Source: Escherichia coli
Lineage (GTDB): Bacteria; Pseudomonadota; Gammaproteobacteria; Enterobacterales; Enterobacteriaceae
Direction: 5' to 3' (one strand)
Length of the DNA stretch: 64,000 nt
NCBI RefSeq assembly: GCF_041248615.1
Contig: NZ_CP158426.1
This document shows, piece after piece, positions 4,831 through 33,852 of the stretch (its first letter is position 1; each line of letters starts with the position of its first letter). The translations under genes and the position numbers were made by a program. Below the pieces are notes generated by a model. That model was given only the letters and a program-made list of their open reading frames with translations, did not search any database and was not told the DNA's origin.

Positions 4831-4909
4831 GTTACTGTTGAGGTAATGATTATGCGTATCTGGTTTGATGTCAATAGATATGAGTTAAAAAAATTACCCA
4901 TAAGGTAAT
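4831..4909 (-). promoter_or_regulatory. Leftward early (PL-like) promoter with two operator sites
   Basis: On the minus strand: -35 TTGACA (4869-4874), 16-nt spacer, -10 TAATCA (4847-4852). Operators are GTTACTGTTGAGGTAAT (4831-4847) and ATTACCCATAAGGTAAT (4893-4909), with centres 62 bp apart. Confidence 0.6.
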
Positions 4910-4921
4910 CTTGTTGGCAAT

Positions 4922-4943
4922 AAAAAAGCCGCCATAAGGCGGC
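4922..4943 (-). terminator. Rho-independent terminator after the repressor gene
   Basis: GCCGCC-TTAT-GGCGGC followed by TTTTTT on the minus strand. Confidence 0.8.
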
Positions 4944-4965
4944 TTACTTACTGAAAAATATGATT

Positions 4966-5550
4966 TTATTGTTTGTTTTTTTCGTTCTGGTTGATGACAA
5001 ATTCAATGTAACTTTCGATCTTTGCCTTCTCTGTTTCAGGTAACAATGCGTAGCGCGAGCGGTCATAGTTGATAGTTGCAGGGTCATGCGGATGAATCAG
5101 TAGTTCATATCCGTGACGCCCGAATGCAGATGCAACATTCTCCAGGGTGGAAATGGAAACGCTGACTTCATTGTTTAACAGGCGGCTTATTGTCACCTGG
5201 GCGACGCCGGATGCGCGGTGAAGTTTTCCCTGAGTTGAAAGGTCGCGGCTTTCACTCATCCAGCGTTCCAGGTTGTGAGCTGCCAGCTGACCAATGTCGC
5301 TTGGGCCGACAGGCTGAAAACCTTCCTGAGAAAGCGAGCGATCGATATCAAGCCAGTTACGGGGTTTATTGGCGGCAGCTTCAATTTTTCGCGCAACCTG
5401 GTCGCCGATAACCTTCTTGCCAAGAGCCCAGCGGTTTACCAGATTTGCCTGAGTTCCAAGTTTTTCTGCCATCCGCGTCTGAACACCATTGAATTCACGG
5501 TCGATCAAGTCGTTGAGATTTTGCCTGCGGACGTCCTGGATACTTTTCAT
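4966..5550 (-). CDS. Prophage repressor (CI analogue) with two HTH units and no peptidase domain
   Basis: It lies between the leftward and rightward operator clusters and is divergent from a Cro-like gene. XRE-type HTH units are at about residues 25-50 and 115-145. No S24-type Ser/Lys autocleavage motif is visible. Confidence 0.75.
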   Translation of the reverse strand: MKSIQDVRRQNLNDLIDREFNGVQTRMAEKLGTQANLVNRWALGKKVIGDQVARKIEAAANKPRNWLDIDRSLSQEGFQPVGPSDIGQLAAHNLERWMSESRDLSTQGKLHRASGVAQVTISRLLNNEVSVSISTLENVASAFGRHGYELLIHPHDPATINYDRSRYALLPETEKAKIESYIEFVINQNEKNKQ

Positions 5551-5604
5551 TTTCTGGAAAATCGCCTCATATATGAATCAGTAGATGATTCAATTTAAAG
5601 CAAT

Positions 5605-5672
5605 ATTACCCAACAGGTAAATGCACCTCATAGGTAACTATCCTTGATTTTTGTTACCTTATGGGTGAATAT
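5605..5672. promoter_or_regulatory. Rightward operator cluster (OR-like) with divergent promoters
   Basis: Three 17-bp sites at 5605, 5622 and 5653. The plus-strand promoter is TTGATT (5644-5649), 17-nt spacer, GAATAT (5667-5672), and spans the third site. Confidence 0.6.
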
Positions 5673-5704
5673 TTATTATCTGAAATAAATATCAGGCAAT
5701 AGCT

Positions 5705-5935
5705 ATGAGCGATAACGGACATTTCGATTTCAAAAAGCACTGGCTTGCACTTACTCCGGATGAGCGTGAAGCCTTCGCACAGGAAGCCGGAACGACGAGT
5801 CACTATATCCAGACTCACTTAACAGGTAAGCGCAAAATGCCAGGTAAAGTATTGATGAATGGGCTTTTTAAAGCCTGTAAAACAAGACAATGGCTGCGCT
5901 CAAAAGCAGAACTGGCATACTTCTTCTACTCATGA
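5705..5935 (+). CDS. Cro/YdaS-like HTH regulator
   Basis: 76-aa protein divergent from the repressor gene. HTH-like segment EAFAQEAGTTSHYIQTHLTGKRKM. Confidence 0.6.
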   Translation: MSDNGHFDFKKHWLALTPDEREAFAQEAGTTSHYIQTHLTGKRKMPGKVLMNGLFKACKTRQWLRSKAELAYFFYS

Positions 5936-5957
5936 TATCCAGCCACAACCCTCTGTA

Positions 5958-5979
5958 GACCGCCACCCGGCGGTCTTTT
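5958..5979 (+). terminator. Rho-independent terminator after the cro-like gene
   Basis: GACCGCC-ACCC-GGCGGTC followed by TTTT. Confidence 0.75.
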
Positions 5980-5989
5980 CATATCTATT

Positions 5990-6006
5990 CGTACCTCAAA
6001 GGTAAT
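5990..6006. promoter_or_regulatory. Operator-type site CGTACCTCAAAGGTAAT
   Basis: Matches the dispersed ACC-N5-GGTAAT palindrome. It sits directly after a terminator and directly follows ATATCTATTCGTA, whose last four bases (CGTA) are its first four. Confidence 0.5.
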
Positions 6007-7935: not shown

Positions 7936-8014
7936 ATTACCTGTTAGGTAATAAAATATTCTAAAATCTATTGATTTCGTGTCTTATGTGGTTTTTAATT
8001 ACCTCAGAGGTAAA
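7936..8014 (+). promoter_or_regulatory. Promoter of the next rightward unit, with two operators
   Basis: -35 TTGATT (7971-7976), 17-nt spacer, -10 TTTAAT (7994-7999). Operators at 7936-7952 and 7998-8014 have centres 62 bp apart, the same geometry as the leftward promoter. Confidence 0.55.
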
Positions 8015-12139: not shown

Positions 12140-12734
12140 GATGCCTGCTGAACCTAAAACCTATAAACGCAAATCAACGCAATTTAAGCCACTAACAGCA
12201 ATGCAGGAGGCTTATTGCCAGTCATACATCAAAACGCCTGAAAACCAGACTCAGGCAGCGATTAACGCAGGATTCTCCCCAAATACAGCGGCAGTTAAAG
12301 CCAGTGTCATGATGCGCGATGAACGCATTCAAAAACGGATTGCCGAGTTGATGGAGGAGCGCAACAAACGAATGCGCGTCAGTGCTGATTACGTTCTCAT
12401 GCGCCTGGTGGAGATCGACCAGATGGACGTGATCGATATCCTCAACGACGATGGGAGCCTTAAACCAATCCGTGAGTGGCCGAAAATCTGGCGCACTACG
12501 CTTAGTGGCTTTGATCTGTCATCGACCATCATGAACATGAACGAGGATTCGATAGAGACAATCCTCAAAAAAATTAAATGGCCTGACAAGGTGAAGAACC
12601 TCGAACTGATTGGTAAGCACGTCGACGTCAACGCATTCAAAGAACGCCTGGATGTTAATGTGAATGTGACAATTGCTGATCGCATAGCGGCAGCCAGGAA
12701 GAGACTGAAAGAACGTCAGGATGGCAATCAGTGA
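12138..12734 (+). CDS. Terminase small subunit
   Basis: Terminase_2-like N-terminus (QEAYCQSYIKTPENQTQAAINAGFSPNTAAVKASVMM). It lies directly upstream of terL with a GTGA overlap. Confidence 0.8.
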   Translation: MMPAEPKTYKRKSTQFKPLTAMQEAYCQSYIKTPENQTQAAINAGFSPNTAAVKASVMMRDERIQKRIAELMEERNKRMRVSADYVLMRLVEIDQMDVIDILNDDGSLKPIREWPKIWRTTLSGFDLSSTIMNMNEDSIETILKKIKWPDKVKNLELIGKHVDVNAFKERLDVNVNVTIADRIAAARKRLKERQDGNQ

Positions 12735-14206
12735 CAGATACAGCGTTATCTCCTGAAGAGCAGTTAATCGAGGATATTGCAGGGTTCACTCACGATCCGC
12801 TTGGCTATGCCCTCTATGCGTTCCCGTGGGGGGAAGAGGGTACTGAACTGGCACATGCCACCGGTCCACGTCAGTGGCAGGCCGATGCGTTCCGAGAGAT
12901 ACGTGATCACCTGCAGAATCCAGAGACGCGATATCAGCCGCTTATGCTGGCACGTGCTTCTGGTCACGGTATTGGTAAATCCGCATTCATCTCAATGCTG
13001 ATCAACTGGGGCATGTCCACTTGCGAGGATTGTAAGGTCGTGGTGACCGCCAACACCGACAACCAGCTACGAACGAAGACCTGGCCGGAAATTATCAAGT
13101 GGTCGAACCTTGCTATCACGAAAGACTGGTTTACCTGTACCGCTACCGCGATGTACAGCAATGACCCTGGGCACGACAAGCGGTGGCGAGCTGACGCAAT
13201 CCCCTGGTCTGAGCACAACACTGAGGCATTCGCCGGACTACACAACGAGCGCAAACGCATCATCGTGGTATTCGACGAAGCATCCAACATTGCCGATCTG
13301 GTGTGGGAGGTAGCAGAGGGTGCGCTGACGGACGAAGACACTGAGATTATCTGGGTGGCATTCGGAAACCCTACACGTAACACCGGGCGTTTCCGCGAAT
13401 GTTTCCGCAAATATAAACACCGCTGGAAAACTGCGCAGATTGACAGCCGGACGGTGGAAGGCACTAACAAACAGCAGTTGCAGAAATGGGTTGATGACTA
13501 CGGGGAAGACAGCGACTTCGTTAAAATCCGTGTGCGCGGCATATTCCCGGATGCATCTGAATTGCAGTTTATCCCTACCGGCCTTACTGACGAGGCAATG
13601 AAACGGGTGGTAACCGCTGCGCAGGTTGCACATGCTCCGGTGATAATCGGCGTTGACCCGGCATACTCCGGCGTTGATGACGCTGTGATATACCTGCGGC
13701 AGGGGCTGCACAGTAAGGTGCTATGGACTGGTAACAAGACCACCGACGATCTGATTATGGCGAAGCGTATCGCTGACTTTGAAGACCAGTACCAGGCTGA
13801 CGCAGTGTTCATCGACTTCGGTTACGGAACTGGTCTGAAGTCAATCGGTGATGGCTGGGGACGTACATGGCAACTTGTTCCGTTCAGCGGTGCGTCCACT
13901 GACCCGCAGATGCTTAACAAGCGTGGGGAGATGTTCAACTCATGCAAGACATGGCTGAGGCTGGGCGGCATGCTGGATGACCAGGAAACAGCAGACGACC
14001 TGTCGGCGGCAGAGTACAAAGTTCGAGTGGACGGTAAAATCGTTATCGAACCGAAGGAAGATATCAAGGAGCGGCTTGGGCGTTCTCCTGGTAAAGGCGA
14101 TGCGCTACTGCTGACGTTTGCGTTCCCTGTGTCGAAGCGTCTGCGAATTCCCGGGCAGCAGAACCAGCAAGGCAAGGCCATCACAGATTACGATCCATAT
14201 GCTTAA
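12731..14206 (+). CDS. Terminase large subunit
   Basis: Walker A-like RASGHGIGKS, a Walker B/DE-like motif (IIVVFDEAS) and a C-terminal nuclease region; 491 aa. Confidence 0.9.
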   Translation: MTDTALSPEEQLIEDIAGFTHDPLGYALYAFPWGEEGTELAHATGPRQWQADAFREIRDHLQNPETRYQPLMLARASGHGIGKSAFISMLINWGMSTCEDCKVVVTANTDNQLRTKTWPEIIKWSNLAITKDWFTCTATAMYSNDPGHDKRWRADAIPWSEHNTEAFAGLHNERKRIIVVFDEASNIADLVWEVAEGALTDEDTEIIWVAFGNPTRNTGRFRECFRKYKHRWKTAQIDSRTVEGTNKQQLQKWVDDYGEDSDFVKIRVRGIFPDASELQFIPTGLTDEAMKRVVTAAQVAHAPVIIGVDPAYSGVDDAVIYLRQGLHSKVLWTGNKTTDDLIMAKRIADFEDQYQADAVFIDFGYGTGLKSIGDGWGRTWQLVPFSGASTDPQMLNKRGEMFNSCKTWLRLGGMLDDQETADDLSAAEYKVRVDGKIVIEPKEDIKERLGRSPGKGDALLLTFAFPVSKRLRIPGQQNQQGKAITDYDPYA

Positions 14207-14296: not shown

Positions 14297-14653
14297 TTAT
14301 TGCTCGCTTAACTTCTGCTTCAGCAAGTAACCTTCGAGCATCCAGATTTTGTTTACAGCATTCTGCCGGGCAATCTTCCGACCAATTTCTGCATCAAAAT
14401 TTTCCGGACTTGCACAGGCACTCTCTCCGGTGACGGTGAAGCCATTCTTCAGTACCAATACGCAGAAAGTCAGGAGGTCTGTAGATTTATGCGCTGTCCA
14501 TGAATCGCCAACACCCATATTGGCAGCACGAATGCCGTCATAAGCAGTAAAGAAATGCTCTTCAAGAATGATGCTTTCGATATATTGAGGCGTAACGCGC
14601 GGTGCCGTTTTGCCTTTCTCAACGATTTCTTTTTCGATTTGCTGGTCGTTCAT
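14297..14653 (-). CDS. N4 gp49 / Sf6 gp66-family protein
   Basis: LTFCVLVLKNGFTVTGESACASPENFDAEIGRKIARQNA is the hallmark of this family. Function is unknown. Confidence 0.8.
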   Translation of the reverse strand: MNDQQIEKEIVEKGKTAPRVTPQYIESIILEEHFFTAYDGIRAANMGVGDSWTAHKSTDLLTFCVLVLKNGFTVTGESACASPENFDAEIGRKIARQNAVNKIWMLEGYLLKQKLSEQ

Positions 14654-14766
14654 AATCTCACCTTAAAAAAATGCCCGGCGAACCTGGCGAACTGGAAGCA
14701 ATGAGTTATGCCTTCCGTGGCTGTACGGGTTTACAGCATGAAGTCATCGCAATGGCGTCCTGCTGT

Positions 14767-14809
14767 AAAAAAGGGCGGTGATAGTCCTTCAAGGGAAACT
14801 ATCACCGCC
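14767..14809 (-). terminator. Strong Rho-independent terminator downstream of the tRNA
   Basis: 12-bp stem GGCGGTGATAGT / ACTATCACCGCC, then CTTTTTT on the minus strand. Confidence 0.85.
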
Positions 14810-14852
14810 AAGCCCCTGGAACTTCTGGCATCACGGTCCTTAGGCGTGATTC

Positions 14853-14929
14853 TGGCGTGGCATGCAGGATTCGAACCTGCGACCAACCGCTTAGAAGGCG
14901 GTTGCTCTGTCCGACTGAGCTAATGCCAC
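14853..14929 (-). tRNA. tRNA-Arg (anticodon UCU) with encoded CCA
   Basis: Full cloverleaf folded by hand: acceptor GTGGCAT/ATGCCAC, D arm GCTC/GAGC, anticodon arm ACCGC-CTTCTAA-GCGGT, T arm GCAGG-TTCGAAT-CCTGC, discriminator G, CCA. Confidence 0.93.
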
Positions 14930-15245
14930 AACGCTGAGAGCACTTAGCCTGTTAAGGCGCCACACTTTGTCGCGGCTCCATAAATGCTCTCATCGTTGTA
15001 CCCTCGTCTCTTCCGAGGCGTCACACCGAATCGCCGGGATGGTGAATCCCCGTGCGCGGAATAAAACCGCTCGACTTGCACATTCCGGCTACCTGGTTCG
15101 TTTGCCCGAGCAAGGGAGGGTGCCCCTTAAACGTATCCAGACCGCTATCGGCGCATGTGCCATACACCGTACTGCTCAAAATAAAATCTCACTCCACCTG
15201 TTCAATTTAACGACAGGCCAGTCAGGTTAGTAACCGGAATGAACT
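14930..15245 (-). ncRNA. Candidate structured 5' leader / non-coding RNA upstream of tRNA-Arg
   Basis: About 320 nt with no credible ORF. It lies between the divergent promoter region and the tRNA and contains several stems, including a long-range stem 14936-14942/14985-14991 next to the tRNA 5' end. The class is unknown. Confidence 0.35.
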
Positions 15246-15250
15246 CTTTG

Positions 15251-15329
15251 GTTACCTGAAAGGTAATAATTTGTGCGTTAAATGTCAACTGTCTACGATA
15301 AATAAATCATATGTGGTTAAATTGGTAAT
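15251..15329. promoter_or_regulatory. Divergent control region upstream of the portal operon
   Basis: Operator GTTACCTGAAAGGTAAT (15251-15267) and variant GTGGTTAAATTGGTAAT (15313-15329) have centres 62 bp apart. CATATGTGGTT motif at 15308-15318. Confidence 0.5.
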
Positions 15330-15356
15330 AATTTAATTGCGTACGGAGTCATTGAT

Positions 15357-15563
15357 ATGTGCATGGGTAGCTCACCATCAGTGCCTGCAACACCAGAAGT
15401 TCAGGCAGCACCACAGGAGCAGGATGCCGCCGTTGTTGATGCCCGCGACGAAGAAACTCGTCGCCGTCGCGCTGCTGCTGGTCGTAGTTCTACGCTGCTT
15501 ACCGGTTCTCAGGGCGACACATCAACCGCTAATACCAGCGGTAAAACGCTGCTTGGTCAGTAA
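15357..15563 (+). CDS. Small hypothetical virion-module protein (68 aa)
   Basis: GGAG RBS 8 nt upstream. Low-complexity Ala/Arg-rich protein. Preferred over the overlapping 15337 frame. Confidence 0.6.
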   Translation: MCMGSSPSVPATPEVQAAPQEQDAAVVDARDEETRRRRAAAGRSSTLLTGSQGDTSTANTSGKTLLGQ

Positions 15564-15577
15564 CCGGAGTCATTGAA

Positions 15578-17257
15578 ATGGCGGAAACAACTAAAGAGCG
15601 ATTGAACAAACAGTTCGCACAACTTGAAAGCGAGCGTCAGTCGTTCGAGCCGCACTGGCGCGAGTTGAGTGATTACATCAACCCACGTGGTTCCCGCTTT
15701 CTGACTTCTGAGGTCAACCGTAACGATCGACGCAATACACGCATTATTGATTCGACCGGGACTATGGCGGCGCGCACTCTCGCCAGCGGCATGATGTCAG
15801 GCATCACAAGCCCCGCGCGTCCGTGGTTTCGCCTGGCTACGCCAGATCCTGAAATGATGGATTATGGCCCTGTTAAGTTGTGGCTTGAGGCAGTTCAGAA
15901 CCGCATGAACGATATGTTCAATAAGTCGAATCTCTACCAGTCTCTTCCGCAGTTATACGGAAGCCTCGGCACATACAGCACTGGTGCAATGGCAGTGCTG
16001 GAGGATGACGAGGACATCATTCGCACAATGCCATTCCCGATAGGCAGTTACTACCTGGCTAACTCACCTCGTGGCAGTGTTGACACCTGTTTTCGCAAGT
16101 TCTCTATGACTGTTCGTCAGCTTGTTCAGGAGTTCGGGCTAAATAACGTCAGCGAATCCGTAAAAAGCATGTGGGAAAGCGGCACCTACGAGAAGTGGAT
16201 CGAAGTGATGCATTCGGTTTACCCGAACATTGACCGCGATACATCGAAGCTGGATAGCAAGAACAAGCCATTCAAATCGGTTTATTACGAGGTTGGTGGA
16301 GATAACGACAAGTTGTTGCGTGAGTCCGGATTCGATGAGTTTCCAATTATGGCTCCGCGCTGGGAAGTTAACGGCGAAGATGTTTATGGATCATCATGCC
16401 CGGGTATGCTGGCGCTTGGACCTGTTAAGGCATTGCAGCTTCTCCAGAAGCGCAAGTCGCAGTTGATTGATAAAGCCACCAATCCGCCGATGGTTGCTCC
16501 GACTTCCCTCAAGAATCAGCGCGCCTCCCTTCTTCCTGGCGACATCACGTATATCGATCAGATTACTGGTCAGGATGGCTTCAGGCCTGCTTATCTGGTT
16601 AACCCCAGTACAGCAGATTTGGTGGCAGACATTCAGGACACTCGTCAAATCATTAACAGCGCCTACTTTGTCGATCTGTTCATGATGTTGCAGAACATCA
16701 ATACCCGCTCGATGCCTGTTGAAGCGGTGATCGAAATGAAAGAAGAAAAACTTCTGATGTTGGGGCCGGTTCTGGAGCGTCTGAACGACGAATGTCTTAA
16801 TCCTCTCATTGACCGCGCTTTCTCGATGATGGTGCGCAAAAACATGCTGCCGCCACCGCCTGACGCGATGGAAGGCATGCCCCTGAAGGTCGAATACATT
16901 TCCGTCATGGCTCAGGCGCAGAAGTCTATCGGCCTGTCCAGTCTGGCGTCCACGGTTAACTTCATTGGTCAACTTGCGCAAGCGAAACCAGAAGCTCTCG
17001 ACAAACTCAACGTTGATCAGGCGATCGATGCATTCGCTGATATGTCCGGAGTGTCTCCAACCGTCATTGTTCCGCAGGAACAGGTTGAGCAGGCTCGCCA
17101 GCAACGGGCACAGCAACAACAGCAGCAACAAATGATGGCGATGGGGATGGCGGCGGCACAGGGGGCCAAGACGCTAAGCGAAGCTAAAACTTCGGATCCG
17201 AGTGTGTTGTCAGCTATGGCGAATGCAGTTAGTGGTCAGGGTGGGCAATCACAATGA
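15578..17257 (+). CDS. Portal (head-to-tail connector), podovirus/T7 type
   Basis: 559 aa. The N-terminal LESERQSFEPHWRELSDYINPR is typical of T7-like connector proteins. It has a Gln-rich C-terminus. Confidence 0.85.
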   Translation: MAETTKERLNKQFAQLESERQSFEPHWRELSDYINPRGSRFLTSEVNRNDRRNTRIIDSTGTMAARTLASGMMSGITSPARPWFRLATPDPEMMDYGPVKLWLEAVQNRMNDMFNKSNLYQSLPQLYGSLGTYSTGAMAVLEDDEDIIRTMPFPIGSYYLANSPRGSVDTCFRKFSMTVRQLVQEFGLNNVSESVKSMWESGTYEKWIEVMHSVYPNIDRDTSKLDSKNKPFKSVYYEVGGDNDKLLRESGFDEFPIMAPRWEVNGEDVYGSSCPGMLALGPVKALQLLQKRKSQLIDKATNPPMVAPTSLKNQRASLLPGDITYIDQITGQDGFRPAYLVNPSTADLVADIQDTRQIINSAYFVDLFMMLQNINTRSMPVEAVIEMKEEKLLMLGPVLERLNDECLNPLIDRAFSMMVRKNMLPPPPDAMEGMPLKVEYISVMAQAQKSIGLSSLASTVNFIGQLAQAKPEALDKLNVDQAIDAFADMSGVSPTVIVPQEQVEQARQQRAQQQQQQQMMAMGMAAAQGAKTLSEAKTSDPSVLSAMANAVSGQGGQSQ

Positions 17258-33576: not shown

Positions 33577-33730
33577 GGTGGTTATCTCCACTTAGTGATT
33601 TTAATCACCACCGCAACGCCAATTACTGGTGGTGAACTGGACAAGGTTGGCGTACCGGCCTAAGTGGTACCGGCGTCCTTTCGGACCCCTGCCCAGCCCA
33701 CCATAATTCGGATATAGCTGTGCTTAACGC

Positions 33731-33852
33731 ATAAAAAAACCACGTCTGGCGTGGTATGCGCCACTTAGTAACTCGGGACGCCAATCCCGGCACTGGATTT
33801 TGCCAGTGCCAGATTACTATGGCACAAGAGGAGTGCGATGTAAATTTACCGC
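33731..33852 (-). ncRNA. Candidate roughly 120-nt terminated leader RNA / small RNA upstream of ant
   Basis: It would start at the predicted promoter (33860-33888) and contains hairpins at 33789-33810 and 33775-33788. It ends at terminator ACCACG-CCAGA-CGTGGT + TTTTTTT (33731-33755). Confidence 0.4.

Follow-up and report, generated by a model that had tools for sequence, protein, structure and literature searches.

What is the stretch of about 320 nt that lies in front of a phage tRNA-Arg(UCU) gene in a prophage of Escherichia coli, and what could it do there? The window analysed here is a stretch of 64,000 nt of E. coli DNA (assembly GCF_041248615.1, contig NZ_CP158426.1), to which all coordinates refer, and its prophage is phiV10/epsilon15-like (Uetakevirus) by similarity to relatives. 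The first-pass annotation of this window had described the stretch as a structured non-coding leader, co-transcribed with the tRNA and belonging to no recognised family, a description upheld by covariation, by the lack of an Rfam match and by the lack of a coding signal. Comparison with the sequences of relatives shows that the leader belongs to a family of modular non-coding leader RNAs that is widespread among temperate enterobacterial phages and lacks annotation. The modules follow one order, namely a promoter bearing operator-like sequences, a core, helix P6, a tRNA or tRNA-like domain, a small hairpin, one or more terminators and protein genes. The core, of about 165 nt, corresponds to 15170–15000 on the minus strand.

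A BLAST search of the leader against phages, one of the checks that the first-pass annotation had proposed, found the segment at about 14983–15170 to be about 80% identical to non-coding DNA of unrelated phages. The lambdoid phages matched are cdtI, mEp460, mEp390, Ayreon, Stx2c phages and atypical Stx2a phages, and the others are P1, P7, D6 and SJ46, Klebsiella and Enterobacter phages, and two phages labelled as Stenotrophomonas phages. Of 5426 complete E. coli genomes, 1063 (about a fifth) have the element, with 276 places on plasmids, and among the matches listed the annotated features at the element read 'none'. Two pattern scans of IMG/VR each returned at least 120 viral contigs, and a profile search of the fetched loci gave 190 hits, 183 of which are nearly full length. 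The pattern used for a scan of genome contigs was too loose (18 specified bases, 31-length gap) and yielded mostly chance matches, which leaves breadth outside the phage collections poorly sampled; seven of its loci were confirmed by nhmmer, including ones from Kosakonia, Phytobacter and E. whittamii. No prior description of this RNA was found in the part of the published literature searched by sequence strings and keywords.

In the loci labelled as Stenotrophomonas phages (L009, L097, L099, L120, OM816834/OM816835), the core is nearly identical to the Klebsiella type and has a CI-like repressor upstream; either hosts outside Enterobacterales also harbour the element or these labels need checking. 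One IMG/VR contig (L027) has two cores, diverged from each other and similarly oriented, about 0.7 kb apart; they flank a convergent open reading frame (ORF) of 166 aa whose sequence resembles a membrane protein.

The features of the leader and its core are as follows.

15171–15251, minus strand: 5′ part of the leader; a long hairpin termed module X in degenerate form (alignment A2, relatives).
15149–15169, minus strand: hairpin P1, CGGUGUAU-GGCAC-AUGCGCCG, pairing 15169–15162 with 15156–15149 (covariation, RNAalifold).
15086–15144, minus strand: P2, made up of P2a (CGG 15144–15142 with CCG 15088–15086) and P2b (CUGG 15140–15137 with CCAG 15096–15093).
15075–15093, minus strand: conserved junction GGUAGCCGGAAUGUGCAAG, with a single match in the window.
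15033–15075, minus strand: closing helix P3a, G15075/U15074/C15073 with G15035/G15034/C15033 (RNAalifold).
15036–15050, minus strand: hairpin P4, GGGA-UUCACCA-UCCC, with a T-loop-like loop of 7 nt (consensus YYMACCA).
15024–15044, minus strand: predicted pseudoknot, P4 loop CACC (15044–15041) with GGUG (15027–15024) inside the conserved GGCGAUNCGGUGUGAC (alignment).
15002–15018, minus strand: hairpin P5, CCUCG-GAAGAGA-CGAGG, with a covarying stem and a conserved loop.

The profile hits were clustered at 94% identity into 55 representatives, 48 of which were aligned without reference to structure (alignment A3). The aligned sequences are related rather than independent, and the shuffle counts are not probabilities; because some sequences were gathered by exact conserved words, the apparent invariance of those words is inflated. 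Across the named helices, 95.1% of cells form standard pairs, versus 25–41% when the 3′ partners are slid by 1–3 columns. Covariation, another of the proposed checks, is evident in 14 of the 28 pairs, which have changed on both sides in 111 cells, and none of 500 shuffles reached the observed percentage paired or the covariation score. RNAalifold independently recovers P1, P2a and P2b, an inner P2 helix, P4 and P5 and adds the closing helix P3a, with compensatory changes in 16 of its 29 predicted pairs. G-U pairs are frequent (e.g., U-G in 47 of the 48 sequences at one P1 position), and their abundance indicates that the folding strand is the minus strand of the window.

The individual helices differ in how much they have changed. 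P1 is paired in 97.4% of cells, and three of its eight pairs have changed on both sides, as in the exchange of G-C for A-U in 21 of the 48 sequences. P2b and the inner P2 pairs covary, and P2a shows one exchange of G-C for A-U and four breaks. The distal part of P2 (15136–15097) is variable; in the window it forms a three-way extension whose loop is rich in YCCYU(U). P4 is paired in 98.4% of cells with three of four pairs changed on both sides, and the same holds for four of the five pairs of P5. P3a encloses P4 and a variable P3 hairpin (15070–15067 with 15059–15056); RNAalifold pairs columns 121–123 with 168–170 here, and the sole changes are from C to U with G-U pairing retained. Within the junction, GGAAUGUGCAAG is nearly invariant, with a single-base difference in just two of the 48 aligned sequences, and the exact 19-mer of the junction occurs in at least 120 viral contigs. 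The GGUG that may pair with the P4 loop lies 9–10 nt 3′ of it. This pairing is formed in 98.9% of cells versus 23–71% in the slid controls, with one C-G pair replaced by A-U in four sequences and no one-sided changes, which modestly supports the pseudoknot. The junction GUGC could possibly pair with GCAC of the P1 loop; this pairing shows no covariation in the 48 sequences, and two one-sided changes break one of its pairs. Upstream of the core, module X (AAAGCGC..GUCGUUAAAU..GGAGUGCGCUUYCAGKUGUG) is intact in Salmonella and Klebsiella relatives.

Most of the stems drawn by the first-pass annotation reappear in this architecture. Compensatory changes in relatives keep the pairing of GAGAGCA/UGCUCUC (part of P6), of CCUCG-GAAGAGA-CGAGG (P5) and of GGGAU-UCACC-AUCCC, which is better drawn as 4 bp with a 7-nt loop (P4). 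The hairpin UUGC-UCGG-GCAA, in a lineage-specific extension of P2, is weakly supported, and the stem CGGAAU...AUUCCG is not supported, being specific to the window, not conserved and in conflict with the conserved CGG/CCG pairing of P2a.

On the minus strand, the 321-nt leader also folds better than its shuffles (z = −3.17, with none of 100 shuffles as good), and the plus strand gives z = −2.54. When 14600–15500 was compared with the 4227 models of Rfam 15, a further proposed check, the tRNA was the sole match, the remaining hits (E ≥ 0.014) being far below threshold and lying on the tRNA or the terminator; the leader matched nothing even at E ≤ 10 with relaxed filters. We take this library to include GOLLD, ROOL, Drum, C4, riboswitches and ribozymes.

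The leader region is non-coding, because the lengths of the core are spread over the residues modulo 3 (18, 15 and 15 of the 48 sequences) and its variable columns show no 3-base periodicity (33/43, 35/44 and 29/43 by phase). The claim that the leader is without a credible ORF stands in this sense, but not the claim that every frame is closed, as an ORF of 87 codons from a TTG start spans 14967–15230 on the plus strand, beside shorter ones. A degraded gene, an option kept by the first-pass annotation, is excluded by the same lengths, by the lack of periodicity and by the lack of an intact homologous gene in relatives. Several GenBank records place 'hypothetical protein' ORFs on the RNA or on the sequence beside it, in some cases on the other strand (L001 2934–3302, mEp460_037; L308 4561–4680; L306 2511–2753; L008 2101–2262; L002 orf40). 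Given the covariation and the lack of frame conservation, the ORFs annotated over the RNA are probably spurious.

The remainder of the unit and its surroundings comprise the following features.

15252–15288, minus strand: promoter-like region, with −35 TTGACA at 15288–15283 and the palindrome TTACCT-TTC-AGGTAA at 15266–15252 over the −10 (sequence).
14929–14998, minus strand: P6, CAACG-AU-GAGAGCA (14998–14985) with UGCUCUC-AG-CGUUG (14942–14929) (relatives' sequences).
14853–14929, minus strand: tRNA-Arg(UCU) with encoded CCA and discriminator G (ARAGORN, Rfam, sequence).
14830–14850, minus strand: small conserved hairpin AUCACG-loop-CGUGAU between tRNA and terminator (sequences of relatives).
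14765–14809, minus strand: terminator T1, GGCGGUGAUAG...CUAUCACCGCC followed by CUUUUUUACA (terminator scan).
14664–14688, minus strand: second, weaker terminator-like hairpin (T2), GCCAGGUUCGCCGGGC followed by AUUUUUUU (read from the sequence).
14297–14653, minus strand: downstream gene of 118 aa, Phage_gp49_66 family (Pfam E = 1.7e-34, ORF list).
12731–14206, plus strand: ORF of 491 aa, annotated as the large terminase subunit gene in phiV10-like/epsilon15 relatives.
15578–17257, plus strand: ORF of 559 aa, annotated as the head-to-tail connecting (portal) protein gene in phiV10-like/epsilon15 relatives.

ARAGORN finds a single tRNA in the window, tRNA-Arg(tct), which scores 73.3 bits against a threshold of 29 with the Rfam tRNA model (RF00005) and thus belongs to the tRNA family; its 3′ end reads ...AUGCCAC-G-CCA. 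The first-pass annotation was accurate in this part of the locus, having called a canonical tRNA with CCA, a very strong terminator 3′ of it, a gp49-like gene, and a minus-strand block of these elements inserted between terL and the portal gene, the flanking ORFs being those annotated as such in relatives. T1 has a stem of 14 bp (14809–14774) followed by CUUUUUU and is the sole terminator-like site within 14600–15450. Its loop (UUUCCCUUGAAGG) is similar to the P2 loop motif, and its hairpin GGCGGU...ACCGCC-CUUUUUACA is found 3′ of the element in both Uetakevirus and lambdoid contexts. The small hairpin AUCACG..CGUGAU likewise recurs 3′ of the tRNA or tRNA-like domain in many relatives. T2, which the terminator scan did not call in the window, lies directly 5′ of the ribosome-binding site of the next gene; relatives show GCCCGGUUCGCCGGGC-AUUUUUUUA at its position, and in Uetakeviruses the second terminator precedes the gp49-like gene. 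The promoter scan found no promoter-like site between T1 and the gp49-like gene.

P6 closes a variable insert, its last G is position 1 of the tRNA (G1), and at least five versions of it that differ in sequence and are still complementary occur among relatives. The conserved 3′ end, GUUGUGG, corresponds to the 5′ strand of an acceptor-like stem, and members without a tRNA have a matching CCACAAC 60–280 nt downstream. The domain thus enclosed often has a D-arm and a T-arm (e.g., GGGUUCGAAUCCC) and no CCA, as in L098, L267/L272, L265/L273, L287 and L205. The length of the GUUGUGG...CCACAAC helix was discarded as support, since with G-U pairs allowed it is no better than in shuffles; the tRNA-like assignment therefore relies on the recurring CCACAAC, D-arm and T-arm motifs. 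The canonical tRNA-Arg(UCU) fills the tRNA-like slot in 38 loci (the window and 37 others), and a tRNA exactly abuts the element in 60 of 183 loci, co-oriented in all 60. In P1-like phages, the core begins 13 nt after tRNA-Ile(CAU). The idea of a leader specific to the tRNA fails on this distribution, as lambdoid PL leaders have the same core and no tRNA, and in P1 the core follows tRNA-Ile. Two T-arm-like hairpins (CUGGUUCGAUUCCAG, GUCCGUUCGAUUCGGAC) are found in some P6 inserts (L013, L277, L292, L304), and the insert of L104 folds almost completely like a tRNA, which ARAGORN reports only when its threshold is relaxed.

Within 14600–15450, the promoter scan found one minus-strand promoter-like site, at 15295–15266. 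The palindrome TTACCTNNNAGGTAA (TTACCT-N3-AGGTAA, at most two mismatches) occurs 21 times in the window versus 1.3 times expected, and the epsilon15 equivalent of this operator-like site carries a repressor-binding annotation. From this recurrence and this annotation, we infer that the tRNA and leader unit is off in the lysogen and on early in lytic growth. The palindrome sites include those at 4832–6005, 7937–8013, 15252–15266, 33846 and 34226, with clusters at 4.8–6.0 kb and two perfect copies at 7.9–8.0 kb, and the set looks like dispersed phage-repressor operators, as in P1. Elsewhere in the window, two Rfam matches lie side by side at 33625–33809 on the minus strand, C4 antisense RNA (33625–33708, 66 bits) and the Hfq-binding RNA isrK (33733–33809, 67 bits), and their adjacency suggests that the prophage has a P1/P7/P22-type immI (antirepressor control) region.

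The position of the element in relatives offers a clue to its function. The orientations of neighbouring genes were taken from annotated records. Five lambdoid immunity types share one order, namely the repressor gene (cI), its terminator, a strong PL-like promoter, about 45–50 nt, the element, T1 and the first early-left ORF, and the operator-like palindromes that overlap these promoters resemble those between cI and cro. Lambda has nutL-N at this position, and HK022 has putL (PMC9378689). The annotations of mEp460 and Ayreon contain no N gene, and none of nine early-left ORFs of mEp460 matches a PHROG annotated as an antiterminator, a result that does not prove absence given the diversity of N proteins. 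The Ayreon record has a further annotated terminator inside the early-left operon. CPS-53 of K-12 has early-left genes related to these; it has no immunity region, and no RNA is named at this place. The mEp phages were collected as Nus-dependent coliphages (PMC11893012).

A link to boxA comes from four relatives without P6 (L033, L089, L266 and L046), in which GCUCUUUAA lies 29–35 nt 3′ of P5 and is preceded by a hairpin; the antisense and upstream controls contain no boxA sequence. L089 alone has the full form, a 14-mer (UGCUCUUUAACAAU) identical to the boxA of the rrnB leader as read from K-12. In members with P6, the 3′ strand of this helix reads UGCUCUU, UGCUCUC or CGCUCCC and is followed by GUUGUGG or GUUGUGUGG, which resembles a base-paired boxA plus boxC. 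Measured against the rrn boxA UGCUCUUUAACAA, the window has UGCUCUC only, a partial match inside helix P6. The arguments from boxA and from the absence of N draw on few phages. The reading of the hairpin found right after P5 in some loci as a terminator was dropped, as boxA follows it and its appearance suggests that it terminates a convergent gene on the opposite strand.

The explanation that we tentatively favour is that the core is a cis-acting antitermination leader of the nut/put kind, because of its lambdoid position without a recognisable N, the terminators downstream, the link to boxA and the Nus dependence of host phages. The core would fold on the nascent transcript and, together with the boxA-like segment, would make RNA polymerase resistant to terminators; transcripts started at the early promoter could then extend beyond T1 and T2 into the genes downstream, and an RNase P cut at the 5′ end of the tRNA (G14929) would separate the leader RNA from the tRNA. 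With rather more reserve, the core may be proposed to represent a new class of RNA that reprograms RNA polymerase, in which a large pseudoknotted nascent RNA would act with a boxA-like segment and host Nus factors and without a phage N protein, as a mobile module that lambdoid phages without a recognisable N gene, Uetakeviruses and P1 have in common and that is physically coupled to a tRNA or tRNA-like processing handle. If the core is an antiterminator, it would explain how the early-left operon is expressed in lambdoids of the SfV, cdtI and mEp460 type, in which no N gene is recognised.

Several observations weigh against antitermination. It is deduced from position alone, and the boxA-like UGCUCUC of the window is base-paired in P6, whereas boxA is normally single-stranded. 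The short U-tract of T1 might allow enough leaky read-through by itself. The core is far larger and more elaborate than HK022 put, and a second copy on the PR side, or a second P6-like or boxA-like motif, was found neither in mEp460 nor in the window, and only one copy per phage was found. In P1, about 2.5 kb separate Pban from the core, which immediately precedes ban and is followed by no terminator, and in Klebsiella phage SopranoGao the core lies 3′ of the lysis genes. In ST64B, the same leader slot has P6-like, tRNA-like and T1 modules but no core, and epsilon15 is viable without the core.

Some of these loci have features of their own. The ban operon of P1 (L004, 769–870 and 3001–3169) is an unusual concentration of RNA genes, with a dicF-like region, three tRNAs and the core between tRNA-Ile and ban. 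ST64B (L309, 5239–6053, minus strand) has a non-coding PL leader of 815 nt with a different 5′ body that gives no core-profile match and contains GUAGCCAGUGCAAGC, faintly like the conserved junction; this 5′ body may be an alternative module. In epsilon15 (L006, 2455–2720), only P1 and part of P2 are left, fused to the 3′ half of T1 through a shared UUCCCUUGAUGCU, and the phage appears to have lost the core, P6, the tRNA and half of T1 by deletion between repeats (the P2 loop motif and the T1 loop). An 'RNaseIII' site in the epsilon15 record overlaps the P1 hairpin.

The main rival, somewhat less likely, is that the element yields a discrete, stable non-coding RNA that acts in trans early in lytic growth by binding a factor of the host or the phage; it might, for instance, be a decoy for a defence nuclease or an enzyme directed at tRNA. 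The ends of such an RNA would be set by tRNA processing, either by RNase P at the 3′ tRNA or tRNA-like domain or by tRNA 3′ maturation in P1, or by T1. Of the options named by the first-pass annotation, a processed small RNA and a tRNA-like decoy both survive as rivals; it had not noted the connection of the RNA with repressor-controlled early promoters, with terminators downstream and with boxA. The complex fold with its nearly invariant junctions and loops is like those of protein- or ligand-binding RNAs, and the very different genomic slots in P1 and SopranoGao are as expected of a mobile accessory unit. The abutting co-oriented tRNAs, the tRNA-like domains and the T-arm-like hairpins in and after P6 point the same way, as do the joint travel of the element and T1, their joint loss in epsilon15 and the convergent gene that follows the core in some phages. 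However, no target is known, two-thirds of the loci are without a canonical tRNA, the exact boxA 3′ of the core in some relatives is not accounted for, and the constant slot between early promoters and terminators in lambdoids without a recognisable N gene is left unexplained. Should the RNA be of this stable, tRNA-linked kind, it would provide a small and tractable E. coli model for the association of phage structured RNAs with tRNAs.

It is unlikely that the element is a riboswitch or attenuator, in which the core would be an aptamer for a metabolite, an ion or an uncharged tRNA and would control the downstream terminator. Its place in a 5′ leader ahead of intrinsic terminators and its pseudoknotted fold with highly conserved unpaired nucleotides would suit such a role, but the terminator is 100–300 nt away, past P6 and the tRNA or tRNA-like domain, with no overlapping expression platform, no known riboswitch model matches, and the genes downstream (ban, the gp49-like gene, early-left ORFs) are unrelated. 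More improbable still is a precursor leader that serves only the tRNA gene by aiding its transcription, folding or processing. The element does abut tRNA-Arg(UCU) in Uetakeviruses and tRNA-Ile(CAU) in P1-like phages; yet most members adjoin no functional tRNA, the side on which the tRNA lies differs by lineage, and the conservation and covariation go far beyond such a need.

A site acting at the DNA level, for instance an origin, a site of recombination or a hairpin signal in single-stranded DNA, is very improbable. The element behaves as a mobile module with sharp boundaries, and similar short sequences (GUUGU...) flank its lambdoid and P1 copies, but the many G-U pairs would correspond to A-C mismatches if the opposite strand folded, and its orientation always follows local transcription. 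Scarcely credible is a protein-coding gene or pseudogene remnant on either strand, for instance the 87-codon plus-strand ORF or mEp460_037, for although 32 of the 48 members have one stop-free antisense frame across the core and several records annotate small ORFs there, the spread of lengths modulo 3, the missing codon periodicity and the compensatory changes in the helices speak against it, the 80-aa ORF over the core in mEp390 (F859_gp36) matches no Pfam family, and no relative found has an intact homologous gene.

Whichever function applies, a strongly covarying RNA of about 165–300 nt goes without annotation in roughly 20% of the complete E. coli genomes, and its carriers include textbook or medically relevant phages such as P1/P7, Stx2c phages, some Stx2a phages, phiV10 and cdtI. 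Under the antitermination reading, the nearest known system is the put RNA of HK022. It is reported that put RNA alone makes RNA polymerase terminator-resistant and that it has two stem-loops in about 70 nt, with one such RNA at PL and another at PR (PMC9378689). The lambdoid relatives of the element resemble it in having a cis-encoded RNA just downstream of PL, ahead of terminators, in a lambdoid phage without a recognised N. In contrast, the core comprises five or six helices and a probable pseudoknot in about 165 nt, occurs once per phage and is also found outside PL leaders, in P1 and in Uetakevirus. The window itself belongs to the latter and is not a lambdoid PL leader, its promoter being repressor-controlled by inference. 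The nhmmer profile of the core finds nothing in HK022 at 23–36 kb. An antitermination role would make the element a second example, structurally unrelated to HK022 put, of an RNA that acts directly on the elongation complex.

The nut sites of lambda and the rrn leaders (boxB-boxA-boxC, Nus factors) share with the element the leader position, the exact rrn boxA that follows a hairpin 3′ of the core in L089, and the P6 3′ strand UGCUCUU/UGCUCUC with the ensuing GUUGUGG or GUUGUGUGG, reminiscent of boxA plus boxC. Unlike lambda nut, the element comes with no recognised N protein or N-type boxB, and the boxA-like segment of the window is imperfect and base-paired; neither nut nor rrn leaders have a counterpart of the large structured core. 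Two other groups of phage RNAs invite comparison. GOLLD, ROOL and Drum are encoded by phages and prophages, have complex conserved folds, often adjoin tRNA genes and are of unknown function. The element shares their phage origin and tRNA neighbourhood, but it is much smaller, has no Rfam match and is tied to what appear to be repressor-controlled early promoters of enterobacterial temperate phages. The C4 RNA of P1/P7 and the CI RNA of P4 are cut from operon leaders by RNase P, near tRNA-like signals, and govern the termination of their own operon. They differ from the element, which shows no sequence or model similarity to them, is much larger and has no identified antisense target. Given its size, its architecture, the lack of sequence similarity and the lack of a recognised N or boxB, the element belongs to neither the put nor the nut/rrn class, and by analogy it is functionally most like HK022 put or a nut/rrn leader.

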